Shown here piece after piece: positions 3,093 to 56,043 of a stretch of DNA of 56,043 nucleotides (positions within the stretch are counted from its first letter, which is position 1; each line of letters starts with the position of its first letter). The position numbers and the translations under genes were made by a program. Below the pieces are notes generated by a model. It did no database searches and had not been told where the DNA came from. It saw only the letters and a program-made list of their open reading frames with translations. The DNA lies in IMG/VR virus record IMGVR_UViG_3300043395_001804, positions 1 to 56,043 of that record; one strand, 5' to 3'. This DNA is from a virus (lineage: Duplodnaviria > Caudoviricetes).

Positions 3093-5092
3093 TAGTTGTT
3101 TCTCCAATCTTGGAGTTTGATTGCCTGACTCCAATTGTCTTCGATGATTTCTGGTTTACAAATACACGGTACTCCATACTGCTTTCCTGCGTCTTGCATG
3201 ATAGTTGCTAAGTCTGATAACACCTTAACGATCCTTTCCCGCCCAAGCTTTTTCTGGAGAGAGAAAAGTAATTCGTCATGGATTTGTAGAATCAATGCGG
3301 CTTTACTTTTAGCTACGATGTTAGAGTAGTCGAAGTTTACTAAACGATTAGAGATTAAGTAACTGTCACAATTGGTTAAAGCTGTCTTGACGATATCGCC
3401 CTCGGTTCCTTGGACGATGTAATTTACTCCTGCGTAGGCTTTGCTTCGTTGAACGTGGAGTCGGTATCCACCGGCGGTTTCGACGTAGCCATGACGTTTG
3501 ACGAACGATACGGTTCTATCAATCGATTCCGTAACACAAGGAAATAGTGTCTGTACTCTTCGAAAGATTCCCTTGATTCCGCACGTTGCGTCGATCTTGC
3601 TTTCTCCTGCTCCGAATATGTATCCGAAGTTGACATTCTTTGCTACCCTCCGTTGTATCTTAGTTGGTTCATCGGTTTCAAAGATTTGCATAGCCATGTA
3701 GGTATGGAAATCGAAACCATCTTCAAACGCTTTAACTAGCTTTGGGTCTTTCGACCAGTAAGCAAAGATTCTAAGCTGTAATTGATCGTAGTCAATACTA
3801 GACCATATACGATCTTTGGTAGGGCCGAATACCTTACGGATGCAGTACGATGTAATGATGTTACCATTTTCATCAATACGTTCTTTGCCTTTGCTGATGT
3901 TCTGACCGTTAGGGTTTTCTGATGCTAAACGAGTAGTTGACGTACCTACTTGTTTGATGTTTGGTAGTAGTAAATAAACAGTACTACCGGATTTCTGTGT
4001 TCTGAATCGTATGTACGATTGTAGATAGTTGTTAGCTGCATTGACTTCACGGTACGCTATCATCGCGTCTACGAATTCAATTGCTGCTTTGGATTTCTTC
4101 TGGGTCTTGAGTTCTGGCAGTACGCTCTTATCAGTTGAGTCGTTTCCTGCATCGGTAAGTTTGACTGACTTGAATTTGAACTTGGTGAATAAGGCTTGGG
4201 ATAATTGTGGTGGGCTGTTGGGATTGAATTCGTTGTCGGATAGTAGTAATCGCATCTTAGCGACTAGACCAGCTTTGGTGCTCTCTGCTTCTTTAACTGC
4301 CTTGGGGAAGTGCGTATCGTGTATCGAGATTCCGCACTTGGTCATACGGTACAAAGGCATTACAACCTTTTGCTGTATCTCGTATGGCTTTAGTAAGTGC
4401 GTATTTACTTCGAATGTTTGTTCTTGGCGTATGAATAGTGCGGCTGTACGGATAGCGTCTTTGATCGCGTACTGCTTACATAGTTGCTTTCTAGGATCGG
4501 AGTCGGGAGCTAGTTGAGTTAGCCAAAAATCGCATTTGTGAAATCGATCTTTCTGTCCTGCGAGTTCTGGTAATCCTGCTTCTGCTAATCGTATCTTGCC
4601 TGACTCTGACTGAGGCTTGAACTGTCTACGTAACTCTTTGATGAAGTCATCTAGTTCTTTTTCGTCGTCGTCTAAGATATCGCAGTAGAGTAACGCTTGC
4701 TCTTTGAGTCCTAAAGGATCGCTTGAGTTTAGAACGTGTGCTCTAATCATTGTGTCATGATAATTGCAGTTATGCTCTAACTCGATTGGAAACGAGTTCC
4801 ATTCTGGAAGAGGGAGAAGAGAAAGCATGAACAGGTCAAAGTTCAAGTTATGGAATACTAGGGTCTTGAACGATGATACGTAGTTGTAAACCTGAGCTAG
4901 TGTTTTCTTAGACCAGTTAGGGGTTCGTGTGCGGGGATCTACGATGGCTTCCCAATACTTAGTTACTCCGTTGTTGTCGCATGTAGATATTGCGAATGCT
5001 TTGCAACCGTGGTGTCCGAATAGACCTGTTGTTTCTGTGTCGATTGCTAAGAATTTAGTGACTGCTTTGTATTTACGTACTGAAGTTGCCAT
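3092..5092 (-). CDS. polA: DNA polymerase, family A, with 3'-5' exonuclease
   Basis: ExoI DTETTG, ExoII HNLNFD, TTRLASENPN, motif A DYDQLQLR, motif B RRVAKNVNFGYIFG, motif C IHDEL. Confidence 0.95.
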   Translation of the reverse strand: MATSVRKYKAVTKFLAIDTETTGLFGHHGCKAFAISTCDNNGVTKYWEAIVDPRTRTPNWSKKTLAQVYNYVSSFKTLVFHNLNFDLFMLSLLPLPEWNSFPIELEHNCNYHDTMIRAHVLNSSDPLGLKEQALLYCDILDDDEKELDDFIKELRRQFKPQSESGKIRLAEAGLPELAGQKDRFHKCDFWLTQLAPDSDPRKQLCKQYAIKDAIRTAALFIRQEQTFEVNTHLLKPYEIQQKVVMPLYRMTKCGISIHDTHFPKAVKEAESTKAGLVAKMRLLLSDNEFNPNSPPQLSQALFTKFKFKSVKLTDAGNDSTDKSVLPELKTQKKSKAAIEFVDAMIAYREVNAANNYLQSYIRFRTQKSGSTVYLLLPNIKQVGTSTTRLASENPNGQNISKGKERIDENGNIITSYCIRKVFGPTKDRIWSSIDYDQLQLRIFAYWSKDPKLVKAFEDGFDFHTYMAMQIFETDEPTKIQRRVAKNVNFGYIFGAGESKIDATCGIKGIFRRVQTLFPCVTESIDRTVSFVKRHGYVETAGGYRLHVQRSKAYAGVNYIVQGTEGDIVKTALTNCDSYLISNRLVNFDYSNIVAKSKAALILQIHDELLFSLQKKLGRERIVKVLSDLATIMQDAGKQYGVPCICKPEIIEDNWSQAIKLQDWRNN

Positions 5093-5118
5093 GATTGTAC
5101 TTATTGTAGTAAGTCGAT

Positions 5119-5161
5119 AAAAAAACCAGTCATGCTAGACCGTGATATCTAGCATGACTGG
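5119..5161 (-). terminator. intrinsic terminator downstream of SSB-like gene
   Basis: 14-bp perfect stem CCAGTCATGCTAGA/TCTAGCATGACTGG followed by T7 on the - strand. Confidence 0.85.
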
Positions 5162-5267
5162 CTGAGGCAAGTTACCGTGTATGGCTACGGCAACTAAAGG
5201 TGAGTTGACTACAACTCGCATCGATTGATCGGATTGTATATTACAATTCGTTCCGATGCAAGAAGTT

Positions 5268-6143: not shown

Positions 6144-6162
6144 AAACGTAACAACGAAGTAA

Positions 6163-8195: not shown

Positions 8196-8699
8196 TCATA
8201 CATGCTTTTGAAGTAGTAATTTGGTTCTGGCTTTAGCAAGGTCTGACATAAAGATTTCGTATTTGTTTGGTAACTGGATATGTTGTACGTGTTGCTTTGT
8301 TAGAAACTTACTCACACTTGATCCAAGTGCAAATATGAGTTTCGGCTTTATAGTGTTTACTACCAGTTCGAAGTTTTGAAAGCAAGCCTTTCTTTGAGCT
8401 TGTGTAACTTTCTCGGTTTCTGTGTAACAAACTACTTGGTTGACCACCAAGTATTTTTCTGGAGGGAGAAGAGGGGAAATAAAGGTTTTGAAGTAAGAGC
8501 CAACTGATCCAGTCATCGGTTCGCTAACTACAGATTCGATATCGTTTGGTGTTTCATCGACGAACAGATATAGACCTTTTGGAAGTTTGGCTTTGAACAG
8601 TTTTTTGTCTAGTGGCTTCTCGTTCCCATTGCATAATTCGCAATTGCTACACTGTAGTATTTGACTACCAAGTGAGAGGGGAATACGAGGAAGGGTCAT
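8196..8699 (-). CDS. uracil-DNA glycosylase family 4-like protein, degenerate
   Basis: CxxCxLC, LFVDETP, EPMTGSVG, NQVVC, AC...IKPKLIFALG follow the UDG-4 pattern, but GEAPG and HPA motifs are altered. Confidence 0.6.
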   Translation of the reverse strand: MTLPRIPLSLGSQILQCSNCELCNGNEKPLDKKLFKAKLPKGLYLFVDETPNDIESVVSEPMTGSVGSYFKTFISPLLPPEKYLVVNQVVCYTETEKVTQAQRKACFQNFELVVNTIKPKLIFALGSSVSKFLTKQHVQHIQLPNKYEIFMSDLAKARTKLLLQKHV

Positions 8700-10717: not shown

Positions 10718-11843
10718 TATTCTTTTCCATCTTTTGCTTAGTTGACAATGTTGCGTTGTCTATTCCTACGTTGTATCGGTATTTTAGTATTGCTTCTTTT
10801 TGTGCTTCATCATGGTATGGATGGTTAAGTCTCCATAGCTCCCAGTCTTCTCCAGCATTGTAGTGCTCGTAAATCATATCCCATCCAATTTGTAGAGCTT
10901 CGTTCTTCCAATTGATTTCATGCGTCTTATGAAAGAATAGAGGTTCTCCGAACCATTTCAATTCTACGTTCATTCGCCCTAAATGCCAAGGTATCCAATA
11001 GTCAAACATTGGTTGACCAATAGCGAAGTCTAAGTTCGGAAACTTTCCACAAAGTTCTTCTGGAAGAAGAAAAGCATCAATACCCCATCTTTCTATATCT
11101 CCATCCATTGGAGTGTCAATGAAGTTTCTTCGAATGCCAAGTGCAGGTGCTTGAGACATAAAAGAGTCTATTGGATGGTATATCTTTATGTCTGAGTTAA
11201 TTATTAGTTTGAAAGGTGTAGATACTTTAGCTGTGAGTAGGCTATGTATCTTTGGTGTTTGCTTATGGTAACGTAATGACGGTTCGCCTAGTTGAAATTC
11301 TACGTCTTTGAATATAGGCTTTAGTTGTTCAATTTCAGTATCTAGGTTTACTGATACTACATTAAAGCCACTACGTTGCCATGAGTTTAGACAATCTAGT
11401 TGAATATCTATGTTCGAATTATAGAACGATGTTACTATAGTAGCATCTCGTGACTTAGATACGATGTTGTCTTTTAAGTCTGGTCGCCAATAGAATAGTG
11501 CTTCATCTAAAGACCATGTAGGCTTTTGCAGCTTTAGGTTCACGAAGTTATGCAGTTCCCAACTCCAAGTGAAGTCTTCTAGTTCACCTAAGAATTTAGG
11601 TTGAACACTTTGTTTGAAGAACTGATAACCACTTGGGCAATTACACGATTTAGGAATGGTTGTTTCCCATTCGGCTAGCCATTCAGGAGTAAGTCTACGT
11701 TTAGTATGTAGTTTCTTCCAAGCAAGTCTACCAGATACTACAGTGGTATCGATGGTATTTTCATGCTGGACTATTGGGGTTGTTGTTAGCGATTTTTCGT
11801 TATGTTCTGAAGTTATCCAGAACAAAGGATGTTCAATGTCCAT
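10704..11843 (-). CDS. Erv1/Alr-like thiol oxidase domain fused to glycosyltransferase-like domain
   Basis: WKKLH...IPKSCNC...WSWELHNFVNLKLQKP (Erv pattern W..LH, Cys pair, HNxVN..L.KP); C-part INSDI...GIDAF...FDYW...FFH. Confidence 0.55.
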   Translation of the reverse strand: MDIEHPLFWITSEHNEKSLTTTPIVQHENTIDTTVVSGRLAWKKLHTKRRLTPEWLAEWETTIPKSCNCPSGYQFFKQSVQPKFLGELEDFTWSWELHNFVNLKLQKPTWSLDEALFYWRPDLKDNIVSKSRDATIVTSFYNSNIDIQLDCLNSWQRSGFNVVSVNLDTEIEQLKPIFKDVEFQLGEPSLRYHKQTPKIHSLLTAKVSTPFKLIINSDIKIYHPIDSFMSQAPALGIRRNFIDTPMDGDIERWGIDAFLLPEELCGKFPNLDFAIGQPMFDYWIPWHLGRMNVELKWFGEPLFFHKTHEINWKNEALQIGWDMIYEHYNAGEDWELWRLNHPYHDEAQKEAILKYRYNVGIDNATLSTKQKMEKNNVKS

Positions 11844-13053: not shown

Positions 13054-14583
13054 TTACTCGCAGTAAGGATTACCGTTACAGGTTTGACCAGAAGTCCAAG
13101 TACCACCGATCTTTTGACACGCTAACTGAGTTGTTTCTATGCAGTAACTTCTGGTAGGGCCGTTTTCGATTTTAAGTGATACACAGCATTTGCCTTGGGT
13201 TACTATAACTGCACCGCTTGGTGGGCATTCAGATTGAAGAATATGAAATCTACAATTTGATGCTTCTCTACTAACTAGGACTACCATTCCTGTTTTAGCT
13301 TCAGTGAATATCCCTGTTCTATCGAATACCGATGTAGATATTTCGACTAGCTTTCCATCCATGTTTAAGATTACCGCATTTGCCCCGTACTCTCCAGGTA
13401 TGTTAGTAGAAGCCATATTCGTTAGCAATACTGCTTTGTAGACTTTATCTGTTCCAGCTAAAGCATGTAACCATGATTGAGAGCTAGGCATTTCCCAAGG
13501 GATCGAACGTAGTCTAGTTCGAAGGCCGTACAGATTACTCTGGAAGTAGTAAGTAATCGATTGAATATCGTTAGTGATGCTGTCTGGTATTAAACCTTGA
13601 TATGTAACGTCGATTACTCTGAGTAGCCGAGTCTTGGCGTTAGGTTCAATATCAGTTGCGAATGAATTGACTTCTTCATCGCCGGAACCTGAATCTAGGT
13701 CTTCCGCTATATGATTGATAAGTGCGTATGGAACTACTACTTTGATATTTTGAATATCAGTGTTTGCGTTGATCGTCGATTTGTAAATGTTGTCCGAGAG
13801 TGTTATTGCTTTTGGTTCAGATTCGTAATACTTAGTTTTGCATGAACCAAATGGTACGCTATCATCCATTGCTTCGCAGTCTCTATCGTCTTTAATAACT
13901 ACTTTATAGCTTAAAGCTTTAGCTAGACTGAATGACTTATTGTAGAGTAATTGAGAGTTACTTGGAAAAGTGAATTTCGCGTCGGTCAGCTTTGGCAACG
14001 ATTCTCCTGGAGGGAGAAATACAGTAAAGAAGTTAGACGCTGCGATGTACGCTAAGTACTCGATTAGTGGTACGTCTGAAATTACGTGCTGATTAAAGAT
14101 TTGAGGAATACGGAGTTTTGGGTTCTCGTCTTTGAACTCGCTTACTAAGTCTGAGTAAGTTTGGTACTGCTTATAGACTCGGTTGTGCTTGTGGTACTTA
14201 CTTGCTGTATGCTCTAGTTCAATTATAAGAATGCGAGAGCCATCCTGACCTGATACGCCAGTTGGGTAGATCGGAGACATAATTACAGCGGTACTAATTA
14301 TGTCTAAGTTAGCAAACTCTTTAATATTGTTGCTGTCTTCGATTATGAGTTTAGCTTTTCGGTTATCGGTGTTTGGTGTTCCGATAATCTCGATCCATTC
14401 TTTTTCCGATACTAGAAACTTGCCGTAGCTTCGATTAGGAAATGCTTGCCAAGTGAAGAAGTTTACGTCTTCAAGAGCGATACCGATACGTGCAAGATGC
14501 TCGGCTAGGTACGTGTGGTCTTTGACTTGAATGTACTTAGTTGCTTGAGCAGGTCTAGTATCGGTTATCGCTATCTTGAACAC
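13054..14583 (-). CDS. putative tail/baseplate protein with C-terminal Cys-rich repeat
   Basis: C-terminal GKCC...C.ETTQLAC..IGGTW.SGQTC...PYC motif; structural region. Confidence 0.5.
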   Translation of the reverse strand: MFKIAITDTRPAQATKYIQVKDHTYLAEHLARIGIALEDVNFFTWQAFPNRSYGKFLVSEKEWIEIIGTPNTDNRKAKLIIEDSNNIKEFANLDIISTAVIMSPIYPTGVSGQDGSRILIIELEHTASKYHKHNRVYKQYQTYSDLVSEFKDENPKLRIPQIFNQHVISDVPLIEYLAYIAASNFFTVFLPPGESLPKLTDAKFTFPSNSQLLYNKSFSLAKALSYKVVIKDDRDCEAMDDSVPFGSCKTKYYESEPKAITLSDNIYKSTINANTDIQNIKVVVPYALINHIAEDLDSGSGDEEVNSFATDIEPNAKTRLLRVIDVTYQGLIPDSITNDIQSITYYFQSNLYGLRTRLRSIPWEMPSSQSWLHALAGTDKVYKAVLLTNMASTNIPGEYGANAVILNMDGKLVEISTSVFDRTGIFTEAKTGMVVLVSREASNCRFHILQSECPPSGAVIVTQGKCCVSLKIENGPTRSYCIETTQLACQKIGGTWTSGQTCNGNPYCE

Positions 14584-16403: not shown

Positions 16404-16436
16404 CGCTAAACCTTTTTCTGGAAAGAGGAAAAGAAA

Positions 16437-18851
16437 CTATGCGTAGTAATTTGCTCTATTGGCTTCAAATGAAATGTTAGCACAAGACGGATCACCTTTC
16501 AAGGCATAGGTAATGTCCCAAACTCCACGGAAGATCGGTAAGTCTGCGGATTTTCCTACTTGATAGCAAGTGTAGTTGCCTTCTCCGACTCTGTAAGCTT
16601 GTATTGTAATTGCTCCACCACCAGAGCCAGTACCGGCGTTTCTACAACCTACTAGGGTTGGACAGGGTACTGGATATCCGACTCGTAGAGCTTGGCCTGT
16701 AAATTGTACATAAGTAGTAACATTTCCGAATACTTGTACGTCACTGTATTCGTAGCCCGATGTTGTTGGCTCTGCATTGTTGTTACCGTTGATGTTGAAT
16801 ACTCTAGCATCCCTGCTTGTAGTTGCTGGTACAGCGGTTGTAGCTCTACTAGCAATAAGCTGCGGTTGAATGCTTGGGAATAGTACGCTGTTCTCATTAC
16901 GTCTTAGTTTGAACTTGGTGTCGTAGGATATCCAGGTTTGAGAAGGATTGACGTTCTTCAGATACGTAGAGTCGTTAGTTGGATCGTAAGACTTGTATGG
17001 TGACGTACTAAAATTTGATGTTGGCAATCCAGGTACGTCTTTCAAAGGAGCGTTACCACCCCATGCCTGATCTATGTTTTCTGGAAAGGGAAAGTTAAGA
17101 TTGCCGAATGTTTCCAAGTGAGCATTACGTCTGCGTTCAGCAAGTGTATGTGTGTTAGCTGAGTCAACATTATCGTAATCGAATGTAGCATTTGAGGATA
17201 CGATACTGCGTTCAGGGTTACGTGGGCCTGCATCATTTGAGAATCTATTTGGATTCCAACCATCGTAAGGGTTGAATACCATATCGTACCCAGGTAGTAG
17301 AGGGCCTCGATAACCAAATACATTCTGGGCATTAGCCATGTATTCGCGTGAGATACCCCATTGATTGCCGTAGCTTTGAGGTATTGCGTTGAATACGTGT
17401 TGCTGATTCGCTACTGTTATTGGCACTTTGCCTAAGTCTGCTGGCAGTACTTGGCCGTTCCATGCAATTGAGACTGGATAGAACAATCCAGTACTTACAA
17501 ACAAAGCGTTCAAGTTGGTAATTACTAGGTACTTGAGTGTGAATGAACATTCACGATTGTAAATGTTTTCTTTGATTGAAATGTTATGCAATAAGTGTCT
17601 ACGTTCTGCTCCCGTAGCTGCTACGTCTTGAATAGCTCCACTTAGAGCATCTTTGGTCTTTAGATTGACTTCATTTTGAAATGGAAGAGTACCGGCCATA
17701 CGTTGACGACATATCGTCATCATTGCTAACCATGCCCATCCTTTCCATACACCAGGACGTACAGTGAATGTACCTTCGAATACGTTGTTCCATGTTAAGA
17801 ATCCAGAGCCTTCGAATACATCGCCACCGAGTAAGCTAGACGATACTGAGTGCGATACGTCTGCTTTGAGGATGTTTGGAAGTATTGGGTTGTCGCTCTT
17901 AATTTCTCTATCGACGATTGTGTATTCGATAGATCGTTTGTTCTTCTTGAATTTGTACTTTTGAGTACGAGTAAAGCCAAGTGGGTGTAGAGGCTCAAAG
18001 TAGTGTGTAAGTACTTGAAGCAATCTTGGAATTGCAGTTGGAGATTCTTTTAAGCGATTGACTAGAGCACCTGTACCTACAAACTCTAGTTCGCCTGTTA
18101 GGGTCATAACGGCTGTACCGTCTTCGTCTATTTCGAACTCTTGTTCTTCAGTATGAGATAGTAAGTAGTTACTTACTTGACCACCTGAGTTACTTTGTTC
18201 GGGTGCAATATCGAAGATAGTATTTATGTAGTTGTTGACAATATCTGTGATTGTCTGAGCACCTGCATAAACTCTAGTTTGTCCTGTAAGTGCTCCTTGT
18301 TCTACAGTTCTTCCACCAAGATTGTTAGAAGTTTGTTGTTCTTGTTCTGGATTATCGAAACTGCCTGATTTGGTTTTGACTGGGCCTGTAGCGATGTTGA
18401 ATACGCATCGCCATTTGCATCGTACTGCGTTGTTGCCAGCTAAAGGTTCCCATGTAAGGACTTCGGGGAATGGGCCTTCGAAGATATTGAATGGTACGTG
18501 TCGTAGAGCGTTATTTACTCCAACTGTGTTGGTTACTGCTCTACCAATTATGTTCATTTCTGTACCCATACCGTGGTAGTACAGTTTCAGTTCTTTGTTC
18601 GGTGCTTGAAGTTCTTCATGGATTTTGTCCATTTGCTTATCAACACCAGTGTACAGAGGATCAGTGACGGTTACTGTCTCTGTAGTGATGATGAAGTCTA
18701 CTTCTAGTGTACATCTTACGTACTTAACTACTAGATTGTCTTCAGTGTAGACGTTCTGTTTGTTAAGTGTTACTTTTGAAAATGCGTGAAATAAGTAGTT
18801 ACCGTATTTGACTTGTTCGTATCGACATACTGGTTGTGGTTCATCTGGCAT
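16437..18851 (-). CDS. putative minor tail protein
   Basis: 804 aa directly downstream of tape-measure-like gene. Confidence 0.55.
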   Translation of the reverse strand: MPDEPQPVCRYEQVKYGNYLFHAFSKVTLNKQNVYTEDNLVVKYVRCTLEVDFIITTETVTVTDPLYTGVDKQMDKIHEELQAPNKELKLYYHGMGTEMNIIGRAVTNTVGVNNALRHVPFNIFEGPFPEVLTWEPLAGNNAVRCKWRCVFNIATGPVKTKSGSFDNPEQEQQTSNNLGGRTVEQGALTGQTRVYAGAQTITDIVNNYINTIFDIAPEQSNSGGQVSNYLLSHTEEQEFEIDEDGTAVMTLTGELEFVGTGALVNRLKESPTAIPRLLQVLTHYFEPLHPLGFTRTQKYKFKKNKRSIEYTIVDREIKSDNPILPNILKADVSHSVSSSLLGGDVFEGSGFLTWNNVFEGTFTVRPGVWKGWAWLAMMTICRQRMAGTLPFQNEVNLKTKDALSGAIQDVAATGAERRHLLHNISIKENIYNRECSFTLKYLVITNLNALFVSTGLFYPVSIAWNGQVLPADLGKVPITVANQQHVFNAIPQSYGNQWGISREYMANAQNVFGYRGPLLPGYDMVFNPYDGWNPNRFSNDAGPRNPERSIVSSNATFDYDNVDSANTHTLAERRRNAHLETFGNLNFPFPENIDQAWGGNAPLKDVPGLPTSNFSTSPYKSYDPTNDSTYLKNVNPSQTWISYDTKFKLRRNENSVLFPSIQPQLIASRATTAVPATTSRDARVFNINGNNNAEPTTSGYEYSDVQVFGNVTTYVQFTGQALRVGYPVPCPTLVGCRNAGTGSGGGAITIQAYRVGEGNYTCYQVGKSADLPIFRGVWDITYALKGDPSCANISFEANRANYYA

Positions 18852-18879: not shown

Positions 18880-21800
18880 CTATTTTCTAGGATCATTCTT
18901 CATAAACTCTTCTTCGTAATCTGGAAGTTGAGTTGATCTACCAAGTAGCCAATCCAATAAAGTGCTCATACCTTTCGCAATTGTTTGGACACCCTTTGCT
19001 AAAGGTTCAACAAATGCGTACATTAACTTGAATATAAGTGTTCCAAAAATAGTTAGCATTCTCAATAGCATAACGATTATACTTAAAGAATCTACCAGTA
19101 TTTGGATAAGTGGCCCTGCTTGATCGAAAAGGTCTACACCTAAGTTGTACAACTGTCTACTTAATAAGTTAGAAGATTGTTGGTAGTTTGCTAAAGATGC
19201 TCCTCTTGAATTTGCTATCTCCATGTTGTTGACTAAGTTTTTTAACTTATTATCAATGTCTGAAAGTATCAAGTCTGGAGAGAATGCTTCTACATTCTTT
19301 GAAGTGTTATCAGCAATTTCAGCTAAGTAAGAAGCACTTAGAGTAACTCCTGCTACTATTAGACCTACTGGGCCTGCTACTGCTCCTGCTGCTCCTGTTG
19401 CTCCAGAAGCTAGACCCATACTTGCTGCTCCTTGTGCTGCGTATCCGGCTAGCCCAATTGTTGAAGCAGTATTAGAAGCTTGTCCAAAGATTTGACCTGG
19501 GCGTACCCCACTTTTCGTAGATGCTGCTACTAAAGTCTTACCTACTGCGTTTATTGACGCTTCAGCTATTTTGAAGTTCTTGATAGCTTGGATATCAATA
19601 CCCGCATTTTGAGATAGTAGACCAATGTTGGCTCGGCTTGGTGGAATCTCTTCCCCGTCTGGGCCGAATCCTATTGGTGGATTAGTACCACCACCCCCAC
19701 CACCTTTGCCACCTTTTCCTGCGAATGGATCGAAAGCTATATTTAACGGTTGAGGTTCTCTCTCTGGTTTACCATAGAAGTTCTTTGGAGCGTTCTTTGG
19801 TCTAAATGCTTCTGGCTTGAATGTGCCTTGACCTTCTTGGTATGCGGCCATTATCTCTTCAGGGGATAGTTCTGATTCGAATGAAGCTGAAGCCATGAAC
19901 TCTTCGAACTTCTTGTCGTAGGCTATCTTAGCCATAGCGTCTAAGTCACGCTTATTTAGTTTGCCTCTGTTTGTCTCAACATAAGTCTTAGCTGCCTCAA
20001 ATGCTTCTACGTTGGCTAACTCTTTGTACTTCTTAGTAACAAAGGATTTGAATTCACGTTGGAATTGCTTAACTGTTCTATCCTCGTCCTTCTGTTGCAT
20101 TTCAAGTTCTTCGATATCCCGATCAATTTTGCCTTGTGCAAAACCACGAATAGCACTTTCAGGAATCTCAGTACGAATTGACTCTGCTATTTCGCTATAC
20201 GATTGTTGAGTCTTTTCACGTACAGTTTGTACTCTTCTCAGTACTTGGCGTAACAATCCAAGTTTTTCTTGATCTATATTTTCGGATTCTGATACTTTAT
20301 CTATGTAATCCTTAATTCTAGCTTCTAAAGTATTAGACGGATTCTCTAGGTTTGTCCTAAAACTCTTTGCGGAACTTGTTGCAGAAGCTACCTTTTCGTC
20401 CACCAACTTCTGAGTGTCTTCGAAGTCCTTGATTCGCCTACCCGCCTCAAAAGTTCTCTGGAGGGAAGAAGGAAGCGTAGATTCTTTAGCAGTAAATAGC
20501 TTTGATTCAAATGAGCGTTCAAGATTCTCTACTTGTGCTACGAGTACGCGATAGTACTCTTGCTCTGATATGAACCCTTGCATGAATTGATTGTAAGCAT
20601 CTTCGCCATCGTCGCCTTCTCCGTCATCGCCGGTTGGTGGTGCTTTGGGTGTCTTGGGTGGTTTCTTACCTCCACCACCGGACATAGCCTTATTGATGCT
20701 CTCTGCGGCTGATTGTGCAGCTTGCTCTACGTTAGTTACGATTGCATCTTTTAGCTTTTTCTTAGCATCTTTTGTCTTGGTAGCAACTACTGGTTCTGCT
20801 GGTTGACCAGGGGACTCTTGGGTGTAATTGAATAGATTGTCCTTGGCTTCAACTACTGGTTGAACTGCTTGTTCTACTTCTTTAGCTATTGGCTCTGGCT
20901 TTTCTAAAGCATTAGCTATAGATTCAGAAGCAGATGTTTGAGCGTCAACAGTCTTTAGTGGATCGGACACCGGAAATGGAATTTCTCCTTCTGTCTCTCC
21001 AAGAAGACTTGACGGCCATTTTTTTACTCGGTCAAAAGACTTTTGGTCTGATTGCTGATCCCATCGAATCGGCCCGCGAAGTACAACTGGCATTGATGTG
21101 GCTCCAAGATTCTTTAGAGCCATTGCACGATGTCGCCCTTCATGACCAGTAACTTTTGCTTTGCCGGTTTTTTGGTCAATCTCAAATCCTAGATGGGGAA
21201 GGGAACTAAACTTTTCCCCTCTCTCTAAAACTCCAGCAACAGTCTTAGTTTTTTCAGGGGAGATGTCAGCCGCCCCTTCACTTCCAAGTTTTTCTGCCAT
21301 TTGTAAAAATTGATCTGGCTGCATTCTGATTACAGTTAAACGAGACTTGTATTCAGATGCTTCTTGGTTTGCTTTTTCAATAGCTTTTGGGTCGAAGTAA
21401 TCTTCGCCTTTTACTTGTGCTTTTGTTTGTGCATTAGCTACTGAAGTCTCTGGAAAAGAAGATAAATCAGCTTTTGTTTTCTTTGAACGAGACTTTGGCT
21501 TTAGTGTTTCGGTCTGTGCTTGTTCTGTGATTGGAGATTCAGCTTCTACAACTGGAGTTTCTTCAATCGTAGATTGTTGAGTTTGGCTAGTTGACTCTTT
21601 TTCTGTATTAAAGATTAAATCATGTAAGAAACTTAGAGCGTTTACTTGGGTAGGTACGAAACTTAGGGGCTTTACTTGAGAAGGAATCTCTTGAGCTATA
21701 GACTGCTTATGCTGTCTAGCTAGTTCATTGAACTGCTGTATTTCTTTGTTCTGCTTTTCAGATGCTTCCACGCTCTTAGATAGCCTCTTAGTGTTAGCTA

Positions 21801-35047: not shown

Positions 35048-36692
35048 CTAGAGAAAGAAACCGGAATCGTTGAAAGACTTTGGATAGCCAAGGTTCATCT
35101 GTAGCAGTTGAGGTACGTAGGCATTTAGTGAGTCTGCCGATACGGAATTCGCCTGAAACATAGGATCGTAACCTTGACCTTCCCAGGTAACATCATTGCA
35201 AGCATCGGAAAGTGTGTCAACAATATCATCTGTCATACCTGGATGTCCAGTCCAGGTAAATACTTCGTCCATGCACTCTTTGAGCCATGCTGCTTCTTCA
35301 GGTAAGTAAATGCGATTGTTACGCATTCGAAGTTGAGCATTCAAAGAATTTTGGATTTTATCTTTAGCTTTCGGGTTGGGTACTACGTTAAGACCGTAGT
35401 TAGCTGCTAACTGGGCAGGGCCGATACCTAGACCGTTAGTCTCCATTTTGACGTATTGAGGTTTCCATACTTTATAGATATCGCATAGAACCTTAACGCA
35501 TTCTGGAATTTCAGCACGCATACGCTTCATGTAGAGCCATAGTAGCTTGTAGTCATGAGTAAGACCCCAAACAGAATAGACTGTATGGGACATACCGTTA
35601 CGTGTTGTAGACTGATCGATGATGCCTTCTTTGACTGTTGCAGCAGAGTCAGCAGTCATGAAGACTTTCTTCAAGTCTTTGTAGTGAATACCTATTTCGT
35701 TGATAACGAAGTACTCGCCTTTGGATTTATAGAATCTAACGTCTTGGACTCTGAAGCGTGAATCAGGAGAAGCGTCCCAATCGCCATGCTCTAATTGAAG
35801 CTTACGTACTTCATCTAGTTCTTGGAGAGATTGACGATACGATCTTTGATCGATGTATTCGTTATCTCGTAAAGAAGACGGTACGAATGGTTTGTTAGGA
35901 TTACGACCTACCCAACGAATACGCTTAGAAACAGCCTTAGTTTCGTGGTCTACTACATCGTAAAGTTCTTTCTCAATTTGGTATCTATTCTTTATCCAGA
36001 GGTGTCCTGGGCCGCCTGGGTTACACGACATTCGAAAGCGAATAGGAATAGACTTATACATTTGACAGATGCTACAGTTATCCATGTAGTTTGGAACCAT
36101 TTCACCGCTTTTAGGATCTTTCTTTAGCTTGTGCTTTGGACAGACCTTTTTACGAAGACGGGAAAAGAGATATCTAGGAGCTTGGTCGTTTTCAAAGTGT
36201 CCAGCTTCGTCGATTGCAGCAAATTGGAATTCTGCCCCTTGGTAGCGTTCTTCAACTCGGTAATCACCAAGATAGCCGAACTGAAGCTTCGCGTAAGGGC
36301 CAGGAGTTCCATCAGGCCAAGTCGTATCGAAGTAGTACGTATGTTCGTCTGGTGAGTAATGGGCGGTTTTAACGCCACGTAGCCACTGAGAAGCACGATC
36401 CAATAGAGCTTCGTTCTGCTTCAACTCTACGAGAGTTCGACGAAGGATTAGAGCAGAGTACCCAGGGGTATCTGCAAACTGCAATGCTGCCATTAGGAGA
36501 ACGTCTGATTTGCCTTTTGCCCCCTACAACCCAACCCTCTTTCTGGAAGAGAGAAGAGAAAACGTAGGGGGCTTAAACGCCTCCCCCTGCTGCCCCGCCA
36601 AACAATGCGTCTAGGTGGGGAAGCAGGAGGAACTGTAACTGAGTGGCGAATGGCTTGTGCGGAATATACTGGGAGCACCAGGGGATACGCAT
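35048..36692 (-). CDS. terL: terminase large subunit, interrupted in Walker A by a 67-nt insert (36512-36578)
   Basis: ATG 36692 gives MRIPW...DALFGGAAGGG then GTT TAA; another frame resumes GKSDVLLMAALQ...IDEA (Walker B), SCNPGG, nuclease TADSA, ETNG, TDDIVD. Confidence 0.9.
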
Positions 36693-39069: not shown

Positions 39070-39391
39070 TAAGAAACCAACTGTGTACGATATGGGTGTC
39101 CTATCCGTAGTAGATACGTTTATAAATAACGTATTTGAGTACGAATCAATACAAATTCAGAAAGTTACTAACGGAGTAGTACGTATGGTAGTACTGAAAA
39201 ACGTACTTACCAAGATGGGAGCTTCGCCGTACCGATGCGGAGTCAAGTTCGATGAAGTACGTATTCACCATGATGGTACTGTGACACTGGTAAACAATAA
39301 GCAAACCGTTACTCGCAGATTGGTGTTTTCATTTTCTCCTTATCTACTTCCAGAAAAAGGGGTGCAGGGGAATGCCGAAGAAGTACAGTAA
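39062..39391 (+). CDS. hypothetical protein
   Basis: AAGGA RBS; packed in operon. Confidence 0.5.
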   Translation: MASKKPTVYDMGVLSVVDTFINNVFEYESIQIQKVTNGVVRMVVLKNVLTKMGASPYRCGVKFDEVRIHHDGTVTLVNNKQTVTRRLVFSFSPYLLPEKGVQGNAEEVQ

Positions 39392-39533
39392 GAAAGAACT
39401 TGAAATACTCAAGAAGATCAAAGTTAAAAAGAAGACTGTTAGTACTGATACCTGTATAGCTTGTGGTGGTACAGGTATATCATCATCGGGTTCGCGTTGT
39501 CATCCTTGTTCTGGAAGAGGAAAAAAGAAATGA
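39372..39533 (+). CDS. small basic protein with DnaJ-type Zn finger, 53 aa (not in ORF track)
   Basis: CIACGGTG and CHPCSGRG repeats; stop overlaps next ATG. Confidence 0.65.
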   Translation: MPKKYSKKELEILKKIKVKKKTVSTDTCIACGGTGISSSGSRCHPCSGRGKKK

Positions 39534-40117
39534 GTAACTTCAAAGAAGGTGATCCAGTTATTATCAATTCACCCCATTCTGTATGGAATGGATATAGAGG
39601 TATAGTAGCTAACATCAATGATGATAGCAACAAAGCAGATATCAGGTGCGTAGTATGCTCAAGGGACAAAACCTTTACTCTTGGAGTATATCCGTTCAGC
39701 TTACTAAAGCTTGATACACAAGCTATTGTAGAGCAACACGGAGCTACGTTGTCTCAACCAACTGTAGGCAACGTACCAATCAATAACGTAGGGCTACAAA
39801 CGCATATCGAAGCTCGGTTCGATTGTGTTGATCCAGTTGTAATGAAGCTCCTAGCTGAATGCCGTGGCTTTGGAGTCAATAAGTACGGCGAACACAGTCA
39901 TAAGAAGATACCAGTATCAGATCATTTGAACCATGCGATAAATCATATCAATGAACATCGTAGGAATGATAAGTCTGAGCTACACTTGGTAAATGCGATG
40001 TGCAGATTGATGTTTGCCATATCGCAGTTACATGAGCAAGGTCAGTATGTAGATACGTACTGGCATCCAGATACGCTACCCAAACCTGTTCCTGGAGAGA
40101 AGAAAGAAAATGAATAA
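39530..40117 (+). CDS. dATP/dGTP diphosphohydrolase-like (DUF5664) domain protein with N-terminal KOW/SH3-like domain
   Basis: RFDCVDP...LAE...FGVNKYG....K......HLNHA..H......D...HL.NA.CRLMF. Confidence 0.65.
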   Translation: MSNFKEGDPVIINSPHSVWNGYRGIVANINDDSNKADIRCVVCSRDKTFTLGVYPFSLLKLDTQAIVEQHGATLSQPTVGNVPINNVGLQTHIEARFDCVDPVVMKLLAECRGFGVNKYGEHSHKKIPVSDHLNHAINHINEHRRNDKSELHLVNAMCRLMFAISQLHEQGQYVDTYWHPDTLPKPVPGEKKENE

Positions 40118-44749: not shown

Positions 44750-45049
44750 TTAGATGGATGTCAGTACTACCAATGTATCTGTTACTTCTTGGATATCCCT
44801 TAGCAACTTGATTGGGGATAACCAATTGTGTTTGTGTAGTAGATTCCATTTGATAGTTCTTTGTCCTAATTTTGATACGTTGTAATCGATGCCAAGTAGT
44901 TCAATTGTTCGATCAAGTACTAAGTAATAGTTACCTACATCGAACAGCACCGCTACCTTTAGTTCTTTCTGGAGAGGAAGAAGAGATAAGGTGCTGTCTT
45001 CTGTGATTAGTACTTTGAAGGGCCAATCTTTGCTAGTTGCTGTTGGCAT
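44750..45049 (-). CDS. hypothetical protein
   Basis: Packed ORF in leftward early region. Confidence 0.5.
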   Translation of the reverse strand: MPTATSKDWPFKVLITEDSTLSLLPLQKELKVAVLFDVGNYYLVLDRTIELLGIDYNVSKLGQRTIKWNLLHKHNWLSPIKLLRDIQEVTDTLVVLTSI

Positions 45050-46054: not shown

Positions 46055-46500
46055 GATAAGTATGGGGAACCTGGGCCTAGTGATAAGGGTTTGCTCTTGG
46101 TACGTTTACAGTGGCATATCTGGGTGTTGTCACCATAGGTAACACCATGCCAGTAGTAGCCTTCAAATACGAACCAACAATCGTATCTGACTCCTGCTAT
46201 GTTGTGTTTGCCATAACTGGTATGGCATTTGAATTGAAGTGTACCAGGCCAGTTTGATACTGTACCAGCAGTAAGTCTGCCTGAGGGTTGTTTTGCTTTG
46301 CTTGCTGGTTCACAATTCAGGTAGAGTGTGATCTTACCGTCTTGCCGCATACGTTCTTTGTCGAGAACTGCACAGCAATCATAACAGATTCGATTGTTGT
46401 CTTTGTCGAGTCCGTACCCTGCACTGATACTTTCTGGAGGGGAGAAAATATCCTTATTGCATCGAGTACACGTTGCTACTTTAACTGTCATTTGTGACAT
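46051..46500 (-). CDS. hypothetical protein with Zn-finger-like N-terminus
   Basis: CTRC...ICYDC. Confidence 0.55.
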   Translation of the reverse strand: MSQMTVKVATCTRCNKDIFSPPESISAGYGLDKDNNRICYDCCAVLDKERMRQDGKITLYLNCEPASKAKQPSGRLTAGTVSNWPGTLQFKCHTSYGKHNIAGVRYDCWFVFEGYYWHGVTYGDNTQICHCKRTKSKPLSLGPGSPYLS

Positions 46501-48116: not shown

Positions 48117-48152
48117 GAATGTATATCCTTATGCAATGTGGAATTTAATAAA

Positions 48153-48494: not shown

Positions 48495-50063
48495 TTACTC
48501 TTCTCCTAGTTCTTCGGATTCGGTACTGGTTCCGTTGCATGGAATCAAGGTCATTGATTGCTTGCTACGGGTTAGAGCTACGTACTCTAGGTTGGACTCT
48601 TGCATTCGTTCCCATTGCTTCTTAGCCATTGGGTGTGGAAGATTGGAAGTGCCGTAAATGATTGTTCTGTTGTGCTCCAAGCCTTTGCTGGAGTGGATAG
48701 ATGATAGCTTGATTGCTGTCTTGTAGGCAGGATCTTTGGCTGATTCATCTGGCTTCTTGAACTCTTCGTCTAAGAAGTCGTGTACTTCTTTGACTGTACT
48801 GAACTTGCTGTTGTCGTACAGTTCAAGGATACACTCTCTGTAATCCATGAGGACTGCCTTAGCCATTGGACTTGGGCAACGTGTGATTGCTTTGTCCATC
48901 TTGGTATCGAACTGTTGTCGCCATGAACCGTCAAAGCTGCCTTTGAGATTCCAACCAATGAGAGACTTCATTGCTGAAGCGATTCCTTCTGATGCGAAGA
49001 AGACAACCTTTTGATTGCTGATTTCTTTACGCATCCTCAAGAAGTGTCGGATCAGTGGAGCATTGGTACGAGACATAATCAATACTCCGTCTTCGGGTAG
49101 TTGATCGTACTCGATACCATCTGCGTTTAGGATCTCTCCTGGTGGGCAGTCTGGACGATCTTTGATATCGGGTACGATTGCCCTAGCCATATCCAAGTGA
49201 GTGCTTGGGCATCGCCAACAGCAAGTAAGTGGAAGCTGTACTGCCTGAGTCTTTTCCTGGAGAAGAGAAAGAGAATTAGACATCGAGCCGTTGAAGGCAT
49301 AGATAGCTTGCCTGTCATCACCTACTGCGATGATGCGATTACCCCATTGAAGGGCAAGAGCCATGCGTAGTGGGTTGGTGTCCTGTGCTTCGTCAACGAA
49401 TAGATTGTCAACTGAGCCAGCACCCCATCCATTGATGTAGGGTAGCCAGAGCATCATATCGAAGTTGTAGTTGAATCCAGTACCATACTTGCCTTTGGTA
49501 CGTTCAGCACAGAGTTGGAGTACTCGTACTGCGTGTTCTACTACTTCTTCAACAGTGCATTCCATTTCGAGTCTGCCATACTCAGCATCACGCAGAATGG
49601 TCAAGGCATCGTCAAGGCTAATGTCTGGCTTGGCTGCCATAGTCATGAGCCATGAGACTGCTTTCTCGATACTGGATTGCAGTTTGTACTCGTTGGCTTG
49701 GGTTGGCTTGTTGCCACGGAATGCAACGGTTTGGATACGTTCACGCATACCGAAACCGCCTTTGTCCATCCATGAGCCTTTGGGCATAAGAGCCATACCG
49801 AACTTATGGAAGGTGCTGGCTTGACGGCCTGAGCCAAGACGTTCTGCCATTTCCTCTGCTGGTGCTTTGTTGAAGCATAGGATAACGCTGTCACGTGGAG
49901 CAATGGCTTCAATGGTGCTGGACTTGCCAGTACCGGCACGAGCTACGACGATGATATTGTTGTCGGTGCTTAGAGCATCCTTGATTGCGGATTGCTCTGC
50001 TGTCAAAGTGTGTCCGGTCTTCTTGGCCTTGGTTACGGTCTTGGTTGCTTTGCGAACTGGCAT
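48495..50063 (-). CDS. UvrD/Rep-like superfamily 1 helicase
   Basis: ARAGTGKS, TFH, VDEAQD, VGDDRQAIYAF, SIHSSKGLE, YVALTR. Confidence 0.9.
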   Translation of the reverse strand: MPVRKATKTVTKAKKTGHTLTAEQSAIKDALSTDNNIIVVARAGTGKSSTIEAIAPRDSVILCFNKAPAEEMAERLGSGRQASTFHKFGMALMPKGSWMDKGGFGMRERIQTVAFRGNKPTQANEYKLQSSIEKAVSWLMTMAAKPDISLDDALTILRDAEYGRLEMECTVEEVVEHAVRVLQLCAERTKGKYGTGFNYNFDMMLWLPYINGWGAGSVDNLFVDEAQDTNPLRMALALQWGNRIIAVGDDRQAIYAFNGSMSNSLSLLQEKTQAVQLPLTCCWRCPSTHLDMARAIVPDIKDRPDCPPGEILNADGIEYDQLPEDGVLIMSRTNAPLIRHFLRMRKEISNQKVVFFASEGIASAMKSLIGWNLKGSFDGSWRQQFDTKMDKAITRCPSPMAKAVLMDYRECILELYDNSKFSTVKEVHDFLDEEFKKPDESAKDPAYKTAIKLSSIHSSKGLEHNRTIIYGTSNLPHPMAKKQWERMQESNLEYVALTRSKQSMTLIPCNGTSTESEELGEE

Positions 50064-52392: not shown

Positions 52393-52630
52393 GTATATCT
52401 TAACTAAAATCGGAAAAAATTTTTTGCCGATAGAATCGGATTCCCAGTAGAAGAGGAACCGCACGCGACGGGCGTACACACACCCACCCCCGCCTATACA
52501 TATATGTACGTGCGTAGATATTACGTAGATACGTAGTAGGCTCGCTTGAGCGTTCAACCGGATGGTATATGTCTATGCAATGTAGAATTTATTGTGCTTG
52601 AGCGAACAAGCACTATATTTCTCTGGAGAG

Positions 52631-52718
52631 AGAAGAAAAGAAAAGAAAAGAACCTAGATCAATATGCTTTCGCGTTCTACCGTTGTCCGTCCCATTACTA
52701 CGGCATACTGATCTAGGT
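52631..52718 (-). terminator. long hairpin with pyrimidine tail after tRNA cluster
   Basis: ACCTAGATCA-x-TATGC/GCATA-x-TGATCTAGGT stem followed by TCTTTTCTTTTCTTTT. Confidence 0.5.
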
Positions 52719-52723
52719 CTTAG

Positions 52724-54048: not shown

Positions 54049-54072
54049 AGTGTTACTGCAAAGCAGAATTTA

Positions 54073-54703: not shown

Positions 54704-54726
54704 TTTACTACTCCGTAAATGGATTG

Positions 54727-55242
54727 TTATTTCTTACGTCTTGAAGAGTTTGTTCGGTTGGACTGTCCTTCCGATTGTCCCTTCTGTTTCGCTCGCCATG
54801 CTCGCTTACGTATGGCTGCCGGTGTCTGACTATACTCTCTCGGTTTGGATTTGGCAACTGACTTTTTACTACCAGTTGATGAATTCTTGGATTTTTTTGT
54901 TGTGGTCTTTTTTGGGCCTTTACTACCGAACAATGAACGGCCTTTCTTTGACTTGCTTACGTTTACTATCTTTGGGCCTTGATTGATCTTAACTGCTTTC
55001 GCTCGGCTTGCTGGCTTCTTAACTCGGCGGCCTCTGATACGTTGTATCTCTTTCTGGTCGCGGCCTTGTTTCTTTGCTTGCTCTGCTTGTAACTCTCTAG
55101 CTGATTTGCTTTCTTGCTCTTGAGCTAGTTGTCGATTAGTTTCTTTTATGCCTTTGCCTTTCTTCTTGGTCTTACCTTTTCGACCTTTAGCATTGTAGCC
55201 TTTAGCTACGTCTAGCTTTACACGTACATTTGAAGTTGCCAT
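54727..55242 (-). CDS. very basic Lys/Arg-rich protein
   Basis: AGGAG RBS; composition. Confidence 0.55.
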   Translation of the reverse strand: MATSNVRVKLDVAKGYNAKGRKGKTKKKGKGIKETNRQLAQEQESKSARELQAEQAKKQGRDQKEIQRIRGRRVKKPASRAKAVKINQGPKIVNVSKSKKGRSLFGSKGPKKTTTKKSKNSSTGSKKSVAKSKPREYSQTPAAIRKRAWRAKQKGQSEGQSNRTNSSRRKK

Positions 55243-55253
55243 TTAGTTAGCTC

Positions 55254-56043
55254 CTATTTATAGCGTTTACGTTTGACGGTTACGATCTGTGGTAAAAAGA
55301 TTAGTTGAGTCTTACCTTTCTTTAGGTCACCTAGCATGTACTTTTGTTTCTCTTCTCCTGCGTAGAGAACCATGCAAACTGGTTTGCATACTTCTATGAT
55401 TTTGTTGATCCATTCTACTACACCTTTAGCTGCTCTTGCTTCTTGGGTACGACATTGAACTGCTAGAGTTGCCTTAGTTGGGAGAGTCTCTAATGAGTAC
55501 TTGGTTGAAAGAGTGTATGGAGGCCCATCCAAGATTGGGACGTTAGGAATTACTTTGAGTCCTGCATCTTGCCATAGACGGGTACACCATCTAGCTCGGT
55601 ATAGGTTCCAAATGTTCTTTGCTAAAGGCCAGTGTGTGTAGCATGAGAAGTCTGGGCCAATCAAACAACGTGGGTTCATGTTGATTGCCCATTCTACGAA
55701 TTCTGCTGCTTGGTTGTAAACGCATTCAAACTTATGGTCTTCAGTGTAAAAGCCGATACAGCCTGGATCGTATTCGTCTGAGAAACTTTGGCTGTAACAG
55801 TGGTAGGCTTGCTCTGCTGGGTCGTCTGGGTAAGTGCATGTTGGGGCTAGGTCTGGTGTTGCTAGGTTCTCCTTGCTGAGTTCAGGGATACCTAGTTCTG
55901 TTAGACCATCGTATAGAATTGCTGGATTGATGAATGTCTGGATAGGCCCATCCTTCCAAGCGGATTCATAATGATCTGTTGGTACTGATTCATCTTCTTC
56001 GCTACCCTCAGATTCTTCTGGAGAGGGAGAAGAAGAATCTTGG
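55254..56043 (-). CDS. DUF4417-like protein (partial; frame open to window end, longer than the ORF-track entry)
   Basis: GIPEL...GFYTEDHKFE...PDFSCY..WP....IWNLYRARW....WQDAGLKVIPNV; no stop between 56042 and 55257. Confidence 0.7.
   Translation of the reverse strand, partial: QDSSSPSPEESEGSEEDESVPTDHYESAWKDGPIQTFINPAILYDGLTELGIPELSKENLATPDLAPTCTYPDDPAEQAYHCYSQSFSDEYDPGCIGFYTEDHKFECVYNQAAEFVEWAINMNPRCLIGPDFSCYTHWPLAKNIWNLYRARWCTRLWQDAGLKVIPNVPILDGPPYTLSTKYSLETLPTKATLAVQCRTQEARAAKGVVEWINKIIEVCKPVCMVLYAGEEKQKYMLGDLKKGKTQLIFLPQIVTVKRKRYK

Follow-up and report, generated by a model that had tools for sequence, protein, structure and literature searches.

What is the function of a short, strand-polar DNA word that recurs along a whole phage genome and is written largely into its genes? 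The question is raised by the Caudoviricetes record IMGVR_UViG_3300043395_001804 of the IMG/VR database, which was analysed over its full length of 56,043 bp (hereafter the window) and in which CTGGA followed by an uninterrupted run of purines is repeated 20 times on the + strand. DNA words that are polar over a whole genome are uncommon, and every known kind (Chi, KOPS/SRS, phage nick sites, and primase sites) has brought a piece of DNA-handling machinery to light. The motif described here is real and under selection, has one polarity over the whole genome, and is found across a lineage of phages encoding a primase-helicase. It is tentatively proposed, at a probability of roughly 40%, that its copies are dispersed strand-specific priming signals for the phage's own primase-helicase.

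The motif class was defined as CTGGA followed by an uninterrupted purine run, and the main count was performed with the pattern CTGG plus at least 7 purines. All 20 + strand CTGGA positions listed in the original prediction, an earlier reading of this DNA, were confirmed to be followed by such a run. The pattern is present 20 times on the + strand and three times on the - strand (12784-12794, 34535-34545, and 44458-44468), or 20 and two times when at least 8 purines are required. Dinucleotide-preserving shuffles (n = 100) gave 3.30 ± 1.85 matches on both strands, with a maximum of 10, compared with 23 observed. Synonymous-codon shuffles (n = 300), performed within genes (49,215 bases) with protein sequences and codon usage kept and three intergenic copies fixed, gave 5.49 ± 1.42 matches on the + strand, with a maximum of 11, against 20 observed, whereas the - strand gave 2.62 ± 1.16 against three observed. 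The excess is therefore confined to one strand and does not arise from codon choice, and both the frequency and the strand bias exceed the shuffled expectation. For plain CTGGA the counts are only 102 (+ strand) and 68 (- strand); it is the extended, degenerate motif that is skewed. Among the 102 + strand occurrences, the purine run counted from the second G is at most 7 nt in 82 and at least 10 nt in 20, with no run of 8 or 9 nt, and this bimodality sets the 20 copies apart as a distinct class. Conversely, 20 of the 44 + strand purine runs of at least 10 nt begin with GGA after CT, compared with two of 39 on the - strand. Plain k-mer asymmetry scans were uninformative, as coding bias dominates them.

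Alignment of the 20 copies on CTGGA reveals T at position -2 in 17 and at -1 in 15, a C-rich box upstream with C at -12 in 15, and, within the run, the strongest bias towards A at +11 (16/20) and +12 (17/20). Only three to five bases are fixed, and the remainder of the motif is defined by its purine or pyrimidine composition. Neighbouring copies are separated by 581 to 4877 bp, or approximately one copy every 3 kb.

Five relatives were found through PolA, the family A DNA polymerase (3092-5092 in the window), and a sixth was added; all have the motif in the polarity seen in the window. Forward and reverse motif counts are 19:1, 0:20, 0:9, 15:2, and 7:4 in the five and 21:4 in the sixth; unrelated records met by chance are at background level, for example 3:4 in 133 kb. 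An orthologous place was taken as a 600-bp window around a copy that is alignable to a relative, and the motif is kept at 47 of 51 such places in the five relatives, as counted by hand from the rows. In the comparison with G001, where 14 of the 20 sites are alignable, the flanks are 80% identical but the core is identical at all 70 of 70 bases, and changes in the run amount to 7 transitions and 0 transversions, compared with 696 transitions and 534 transversions in the flanks. G004, with 11 of 20 sites alignable, keeps 52 of 55 core bases, and its ratio of transitions to transversions is 9:3 in the run and 452:533 in the flanks. The C-rich box at orthologous sites is no better kept than the flanks (0.81 vs 0.80 and 0.66 vs 0.75) and, being conserved at flank level, is held as a weak feature only.

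The effect of this conservation on coding sequence is clearest in PolA. The copy at 4804..4825 (+), antisense in the exonuclease part of the gene and kept in three of five alignable relatives, encodes SLLPLP, a 6-residue insertion relative to one distant PolA, and at the copy at 3254..3268 (+), antisense near the C-terminus and kept in four of four alignable relatives, the - strand encodes LLFSLQKK directly after the catalytic HDE motif. The PolA coding sequence has been bent to the motif by insertion and recoding. The motif is thus under selection and overrides protein-coding constraint even in a polymerase. With the codon shuffles (5.5 vs 20), the 47 of 51 places kept, and the invariant core, this bears out the claim of the original prediction that a selected polar cis signal is imposed on coding sequence. 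The copies also lie, as had been claimed, in unrelated genes, in different codon phases, and in intergenic DNA. The motif is absent from L027, a more remote relative by PolA.

The direction of the motif relative to genes was assessed in oppositely transcribed blocks of eight genomes. These blocks contain 13 copies in the genome-wide orientation compared with 1.2 chance coding-strand hits expected, although one of the 13 (copy 27878 of G000) is an ORF-calling artefact caused by a spurious overlapping open reading frame (ORF) and the window's clade contributes four non-independent genomes; one, two, and three copies in the genome-wide orientation come independently from G016, G018, and G019, respectively. 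Only one gene-relative copy was found, compared with seven expected if the motif followed genes. As the genome-wide orientation is kept in inverted gene modules, the motif is a DNA-level signal for a one-directional process: it is read on DNA genome-wide, is not a protein feature, and is unlikely to be read on RNA. The original prediction had left several functions open, and its options of replication direction and protein loading fit the uniform orientation, whereas that of a signal on the mRNA does not.

The motif extends well beyond the close relatives. The primase of the window has hundreds of uncultured homologues, and an alignment of 16 of them was used to retrieve 77 viral loci. Many of these loci carry a short pyrimidine run, CTG, and at least 9 purines on the strand opposite the primase gene, in genomes with 27-56% primase identity and a GC content of 38-64%. 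Counts of CTGG plus at least 7 purines on the non-coding and coding strands are 9:3 in L079, 7:0 in L094, 9:1 in L100, 11:1 in L102, and 5:1 in L099; L106 has the variant core CTGAAAGAG, and YYCTG plus at least 9 purines is found there at 6:0. Whole distant records give forward to reverse counts of 14:4, 2:15, 0:12, and 8:2. Lineages have their own versions of the motif, namely YYC-CTG-GGARRRAG, Y-CTG-AAAGARRR, TTTT-CTG-GAAGAGAAR, and TT-TTG-GAAGAAAA, with CTG in the contexts CTGGA, CTGGG, and CTGAAAG. Common to all is only C/T-T-G at the junction from pyrimidine to purine, with TTG in L112 and L092. A FastTree phylogeny of the primase separates a carrier half, in which 26 of 37 loci have at least three non-coding-strand copies (140 non-coding vs 42 coding in 635 kb), from another half, in which this holds for three of 39 loci (28 vs 37 in 690 kb). 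In two subclades of the carrier half the run is shorter, at 7-8 nt. The motif marks a coherent lineage of uncultured phages of approximately 45-60 kb.

One carrier, G016 (L146-L148), has a structural block at approximately 14.5-39.4 kb with five reversed copies and one forward copy, and 17 forward and two reversed copies in the rest of the genome. The block may have undergone a true switch of strand, or its reversed copies, which lie on the coding strand, may be chance hits, as these are more frequent on that strand. Two further repeats in these loci are unrelated to the motif: the palindrome TGATATATCA, present in 42 copies in 22 kb of L097 and nine copies in L106, and a tandem array in L097 built on AGAGCAAT.

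The candidate reader of the motif is the primase-helicase encoded on the - strand at 593-2785. This ORF matches Zn_ribbon_DnaG with an E-value of 3e-4, below the Pfam cut-off, has the Walker A motif GPASCGKS, and has a C-terminal stretch similar to Lrs14/Sta1 winged-helix regulators (E ~2e-6, below curated cut-offs); its Atlas neighbours have Toprim_2, Zn_ribbon_DnaG, and MarR/IclR-type helix-turn-helix domains. An AlphaFold (AF2) model built with 76 homologues has a mean predicted local distance difference test (pLDDT) score of 90. Foldseek aligns approximately 440 columns of the C-terminal part to MCM2-7 subunits, with E-values down to 9e-10, and matches the N-terminal part to Twinkle, T7 gp4, and the T4 primosome/T4 gp61. 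The protein is accordingly a four-part fusion of a DnaG zinc ribbon, a Toprim domain, an MCM-like AAA+ helicase, and a winged helix. We take this architecture to recall that of phage P4 alpha, in which the origin is bound by the C-terminal domain. The primase family is large and was found in uncultured phages only, and some homologues of approximately 1000 residues carry intein domains (PF14890).

According to the proposed reading, the primase-helicase would read the motif on the strand that is made single-stranded during one-directional replication. The motif strand would then be the template, d(CTG) the initiation trinucleotide with a cryptic G, and the primer would start with pppAG and copy the T/C-run. 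The purine run of at least 10 nt on the 3' side would act as a platform for the primase, as it has no self-pairing and no pyrimidine at which to start a primer. Homopurine runs are said to bind single-stranded DNA-binding protein poorly, and a run that binds it poorly and cannot pair with itself may be a natural landing pad. In a mirror register, the purine run itself would be the primer, copied from the pyrimidine strand, and replication would be co-directional with transcription; the conservation pattern would allow this register equally. We infer both priming as the process and the choice of register. On a related proposal, for which the odds are rather less than even, the phage lineage would hard-wire the start points of discontinuous or complementary-strand synthesis with a composite code (pyrimidine run, d(CTG), and at least 10 purines) that is read by the fusion primase.

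Several properties of known primases are in agreement with this reading. Bacterial DnaG initiates at the middle base of d(CTG), d(CTA), or d(TTA) and makes pppAG primers (PMC2978363). The invariant C/T-T-G corresponds to these start trinucleotides and therefore counts for priming, as an agreement of sequence only. For T7 primase, a second report states that the 10 nt located 3' of the recognition site govern binding, that the dinucleotide at sites 9-10 is critical and binding is abolished by C there, and that the proposed active priming sites are ~1-6 kb apart (PMC12839067). Counted after CTG, positions +11 and +12 of the motif correspond to sites 9-10; with a run of no less than 10 nt and gaps of 0.6-4.9 kb, the motif parallels T7 primase sites as they are described there. 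A T7-like plant primase uses a two-base cryptic element, GA, after G (PMC5737085), and longer recognition cores therefore exist. An invariant trinucleotide with a central pyrimidine and a putative cognate primase, both expected of priming sites, thus seem to be present together in the window. The uniform orientation of the signal on DNA and its concentration in one half of the primase tree also count for priming.

A number of observations weigh against the priming reading, the first being that the link between motif and primase is circumstantial. The distant carriers have capsid, terminase, and recombination genes in common with the window, so that the motif follows the lineage as a whole and not the primase alone, and a tie to the replication module alone was rejected in view of the shared capsid and terminase genes. 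Over the head genes, the relatives lack the motif for 8.8-13.8 kb at a stretch, and the motif is therefore not needed for every Okazaki fragment; similarly, a stretch of ~25 kb in G016 holds a single forward copy. Spacing is more even than random in the window genome (coefficient of variation 0.43, P ~1e-4), but evenness is weak or absent in G001, G002, and G004 (P 0.04-0.4). With the motif strand as template, forks would run head-on to nearly all transcription, unlike in T7, and T7 primase prefers A/T rather than purines in the 3' flank (PMC12839067). Priming explains neither the strict purine-only composition of the run nor the conserved reversed copy at 39353 and the weak C-rich box. Nucleotide composition adds little: at four-fold sites the motif strand has more G than C under both gene orientations (+0.37 and +0.09), but the intergenic GC skew is just +0.04, the sample of + genes comprises 101 G+C sites, and T7, used as a calibration, has a different pattern. 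More G than C is the composition expected of a strand that is more often single-stranded, and may weakly favour the motif strand as template.

DNA structure was considered as a further property of the motif. A general hairpin at the motif was rejected, as 95-nt windows at the copies fold no better than 300 random windows (mean fold energy -19.2 vs -20.1 on the + strand, P = 0.29; -18.8 vs -17.8 on the - strand, P = 0.48). Pairing of the T/C-run with the purine run was likewise rejected, as no covariation was found in any register among 109 distinct copies, and the sole nominal match includes a fixed G. A conserved enclosing stem is present only at the copy at 36543..36562 (+), which lies in the loop of a hairpin at 36519-36572, between a RuvC-like gene and the large terminase gene terL. 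This hairpin has a 36-nt loop and a conserved 9-bp GC-rich stem, in which TAC/GTA has become TGC/GCA by compensatory change in G001 and G002, and is more stable on the - (mRNA-sense) strand in six of six genomes (-34 to -37 vs -20 to -25 kcal/mol); it could be a leader structure of terL or related to packaging. The original prediction had placed this copy in the loop of a terL insert. It is instead in an intergenic hairpin loop upstream of terL (35048-36493), no evidence of an insert was found there, and the neighbouring ORF at 36720-37193 is RuvC-like and not a terminase.

The main rival explanation, though an improbable one, is that the motif is the recognition site of a nicking system. The motif strand of packaged DNA would then be interrupted at the copies, in the manner of T5/BF23, phiKMV-like phages, and tf. 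In one report, tf has 14 nicks, all on one strand, which also holds all consensus sites; LUZ24-group relatives of tf have similar nick-site positions; phiKMV-like nicks are on the non-coding strand with a bipartite consensus; and the function of such nicks is given as unknown even in those phages (PMC3517423). The window resembles these systems in having its 20 copies on one (non-coding) strand at orthologous places that are kept in relatives, against their ~4-14 conserved sites per genome, in the uneven distribution of copies in relatives, and in a family A polymerase, and it encodes candidate nucleases (SNase-like, PD-(D/E)XK, RuvC-like, and DUF4417). However, the consensuses given for nicks (TACT/RTGMC, CGACxxxxxCCTA/CTCCGG, and R/GCGCRGG) are specific 7-19-mers, whereas no specific consensus of at least 7 nt was found here: the signal has a core of 3-5 nt and a degenerate run with a length threshold. 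Strong copies on the other strand at a conserved place are also difficult to reconcile with nicking. As a weak stand-in for nicks, contig ends were compared with copy positions: five of 41 ends are no more than 60 nt from a copy, against 2.6 expected (P = 0.12), and none of 32 in the motif-poor primase group; the contig break beside the copy at 56018 falls where ~200 bp of the relatives' sequence is unmatched. Somewhat more doubtful still is a polar signal that, by analogy, would load or orient a translocase on duplex DNA; this translocase could be the MCM-like helicase, acting through its winged helix, or the machinery of packaging or ejection. Such a signal would suit an orientation that is uniform irrespective of gene direction, the winged helix on the primase-helicase, and lineage-specific run sequences, as would arise if the recognising protein and its target co-evolved. 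A winged helix is also the domain with which FtsK recognises KOPS, and KOPS (FtsK), SRS (SpoIIIE), and Chi are, like the motif, polar, purine- or G-rich, and in excess on one strand. Nevertheless, they are exact 5-8-mers without a degenerate, length-thresholded run, and no exact word of 5-8 nt skewed to one strand was found in the window; KOPS and SRS also flip in orientation at the origin and terminus of a bidirectionally replicated chromosome, whereas the orientation here is uniform. A motif-poor stretch next to terL has no obvious packaging rationale, and to our knowledge terminases are not known to need sequence guidance.

An RNA signal, in which a pyrimidine tract, (U)CCAG, and A residues on the mRNA would form the binding or cleavage site of an RNA-binding protein, is very improbable. 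Most copies are antisense, and it is thus the pyrimidine version that appears in the mRNA; the reversed copy at 39353 is likewise on the non-coding strand of its gene, and the hairpin at 36543, with its compensatory changes, is more stable in the mRNA sense in all six genomes. Inverted modules, however, keep the genome-wide orientation (13 vs 1), intergenic DNA is not enriched in copies, copies lie mid-gene in all three phases, and neither an excess of folding nor covariation between the arms was found. Equally little can be said for a motif without a function of its own, whether a by-product of composition and codon bias or the passively inherited footprint of a repeat insertion that spread. 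The - strand genes do favour pyrimidine-ending codons (C3 0.25 vs G3 0.15), and one PolA copy resembles an 18-nt insertion. Codon shuffles, however, yield 5.5 copies and not 20, the core is identical at 70 of 70 bases with 7 transitions to 0 transversions in the run, run lengths are bimodal, and the motif persists at 27-56% primase identity and 38-64% GC in lineage-specific variants. A phage terminator, or a promoter of the single-subunit RNA polymerase type, was also rejected, given that 17 of the 20 copies are inside ORFs and 15 are antisense, that the scanned window ORFs yielded no RNA polymerase, and that promoter-like places are taken by a second repeated element, the 19-mer TAATAAATTCNGCATTGCA.

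With the priming reading retained, the closest known signals are those of DnaG, at d(CTG)/d(CTA)/d(TTA), and of T7 gp4, at 5'-(G/T)2GTC-3'. These share with the motif a core of three bases around a central pyrimidine, dependence on ~10 nt of 3' context, use of one strand per fork, and 1-6 kb between proposed active sites; the signal in the window differs in its strict, thresholded purine run, its lineage-wide orthologous places, and its being forced into coding sequence. The papers cited here describe no comparable polar set of sites hard-wired into a whole genome. The ssi sites of the phage G4 origin type and the mitochondrial light-strand origin are also strand-specific starts of complementary-strand synthesis, to which the one copy in a hairpin loop may be likened, but they are single or few structured elements per replicon, compared with 15-25 mostly unstructured copies here. 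The retroviral polypurine tract, a run of 10-20 purines that serves as a second-strand primer, would fit the mirror register, but it works through RNase H resistance in reverse transcription; no reverse transcriptase was found among the window ORFs scanned. The motif can be counted among the strand-polar DNA signals for DNA-processing machines. A search of literature largely outside the subscription journals gave no account of a polar motif of pyrimidines, CTG, and a polypurine run in the genomes of phages. It is unusual in being defined by composition with a length threshold, in keeping orthologous places down to ~30% protein identity, and in overriding coding constraint. If it is a priming code, the choice of priming sites would be written in the genome and able to evolve, and would not simply reflect statistical use of frequent trinucleotides; how primases choose sites on a real genome could then be tested directly, with a defined enzyme acting on a defined signal of 30 nt. 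If it marks nicks, the phenomenon of localized nicks would extend to new, abundant environmental phages with a recognisable sequence signature. Under either reading, the motif is a simple diagnostic for the lineage in metagenomes.

Of the 20 copies, 15 are antisense in - strand ORFs, with two, four, and nine in codon phases 0, 1, and 2, respectively; three are intergenic (16418, 36543, and 52623), and two are in the + strand module (39511 and 40092). Intergenic DNA is not enriched, with three of 20 copies compared with ~12% of the genome outside the shuffled codons. All are on the + strand. After the two PolA copies, those at 8459..8479 and 11060..11074 are antisense in the UDG-like ORF 8196-8738 and in ORF 10704-11843, respectively, and that at 14007..14019 is antisense in ORF 13054-14583 and kept in four of four alignable relatives. 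The copy at 16418..16436 lies between ORFs 16437-18851 and 16071-16403 and is kept in five of five; 17081..17094 is antisense in ORF 16437-18851, and ORF 18880-22407 has two antisense copies, at 20458..20475 and 21450..21462. The copy at 23693..23710, at the 3' end of ORF 23671-24279 and 12 nt past a + strand 19-mer, is kept in five of five alignable relatives, and that at 27878..27894, antisense in ORF 27522-28754 and the last before the motif-poor head-gene stretch, in two of four. A weak copy at 32440..32452 has no T-run, scores 12.9 with a position weight matrix (PWM), and is not alignable in relatives. In the copies at 39511..39530 and 40092..40110, on the coding strand of the + module, the purine run is also a ribosome-binding site, for the start codons ATG 39531 and ATG 40110. 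The copy at 44969..44986, antisense in ORF 44750-45049, is inside an inverted repeat (44944-44951 / 44990-44997); the enclosing stem is specific to the window genome and is poorly kept in G001 and G004. The remaining copies are 46434..46448, antisense in ORF 46051-46536; 49257..49275, antisense in the UvrD-like helicase gene; 52623..52652, intergenic beside a tRNA-Arg gene and with the longest purine run (28 nt); and 56018..56037, antisense in the DUF4417 ORF and 6 nt from the contig end.

The few reversed copies named in the original prediction exist, with PWM scores of 23.6 (39353), 12.9 (34545), and 9.0 (41995). The strong one, at 39326..39375 (-) with CTGGA at 39353-39349, has a run that is broken by T. 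It stands back-to-back with the copy at 39511, 158 bp apart in the window and 124-152 bp apart in G001, G004, and G006, and orthologous reversed copies are found at 29817 in G001, 7428 in G004, 53238 in G006, and 17359 in G008. The pair was not seen in distant lineages, and its interpretation as an origin mark was dropped since it is conserved in the window's clade only.

The 19-mer TAATAAATTCNGCATTGCA has 13 matches in the window at up to 3 mismatches, compared with 0.07 expected. Ten are on the - strand (6126-6144, 9010-9028, 14596-14614, 23629-23647, 36704-36722, 38558-38576, 44734-44752, 48132-48150, 52576-52594, and 54057-54075) and three on the + strand (23663-23681, 34981-34999, and 38353-38371). 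Most lie approximately 15 nt before - strand start codons, and the 19-mer is a candidate promoter or leader element of the phage. By hand count, three of the 10 - strand 19-mers have a motif copy within 250 nt upstream; an association between the two elements was set aside. Exact copies of the 19-mer are also present in relatives and in much larger unrelated contigs; the stretch is near-identical in six of the seven contigs aligned and the seventh shares the 19-mer alone, and these matches in larger contigs are probably coincidental.

The record, which forms the whole window, is estimated to be 99% complete and is classed as linear. Both contig ends (1 and 56043) are within one ORF, and the record is therefore a permuted circle that was cut once; relatives have ~200 bp between the two ends that are absent or diverged in this record. 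The phage has, as far as the searches reached, no cultured relative: a 24-kb DNA query against cultured phages gave no match, PolA has at most 24% identity to any deposited phage, and searches with the head protein and the primase for cultured relatives gave no match. The - strand carries nearly all long ORFs, and the + strand module is small (~38.6-42.0 kb); a + strand open frame at 26661-27986 (441 codons), antisense to two real - strand genes, is spurious. Family scans of the window ORFs identified, besides PolA, the primase (593-2785, -), terL, and the RuvC-like resolvase match upstream of it (36720-37193), the major head protein (25417-26589), Sak4-like and PD-(D/E)XK recombination proteins, a UvrD-like helicase, and MazG. 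An Rfam scan of the window matched tRNA only, and the tRNA-Arg with anticodon TCT (52723-52797, -) is the sole Rfam or ARAGORN match. A nucleotide- and base-handling set comprises the N-terminal domain of a dATP/dGTP diphosphohydrolase (39531-40117, +), a MazG-like pyrophosphatase (9348-9737, -), a UDG-superfamily protein (8196-8738, -), and a T4 endoV-like pyrimidine-dimer glycosylase (50092-50526, -). The + module also encodes a CsrA homologue of 69 residues (38643-38852, +; TIGR00202, E 4e-17, just under the curated cut-off), which is preceded by a near-consensus sigma-70 promoter, TTGACA-18-TATACT, at 38525-38554.

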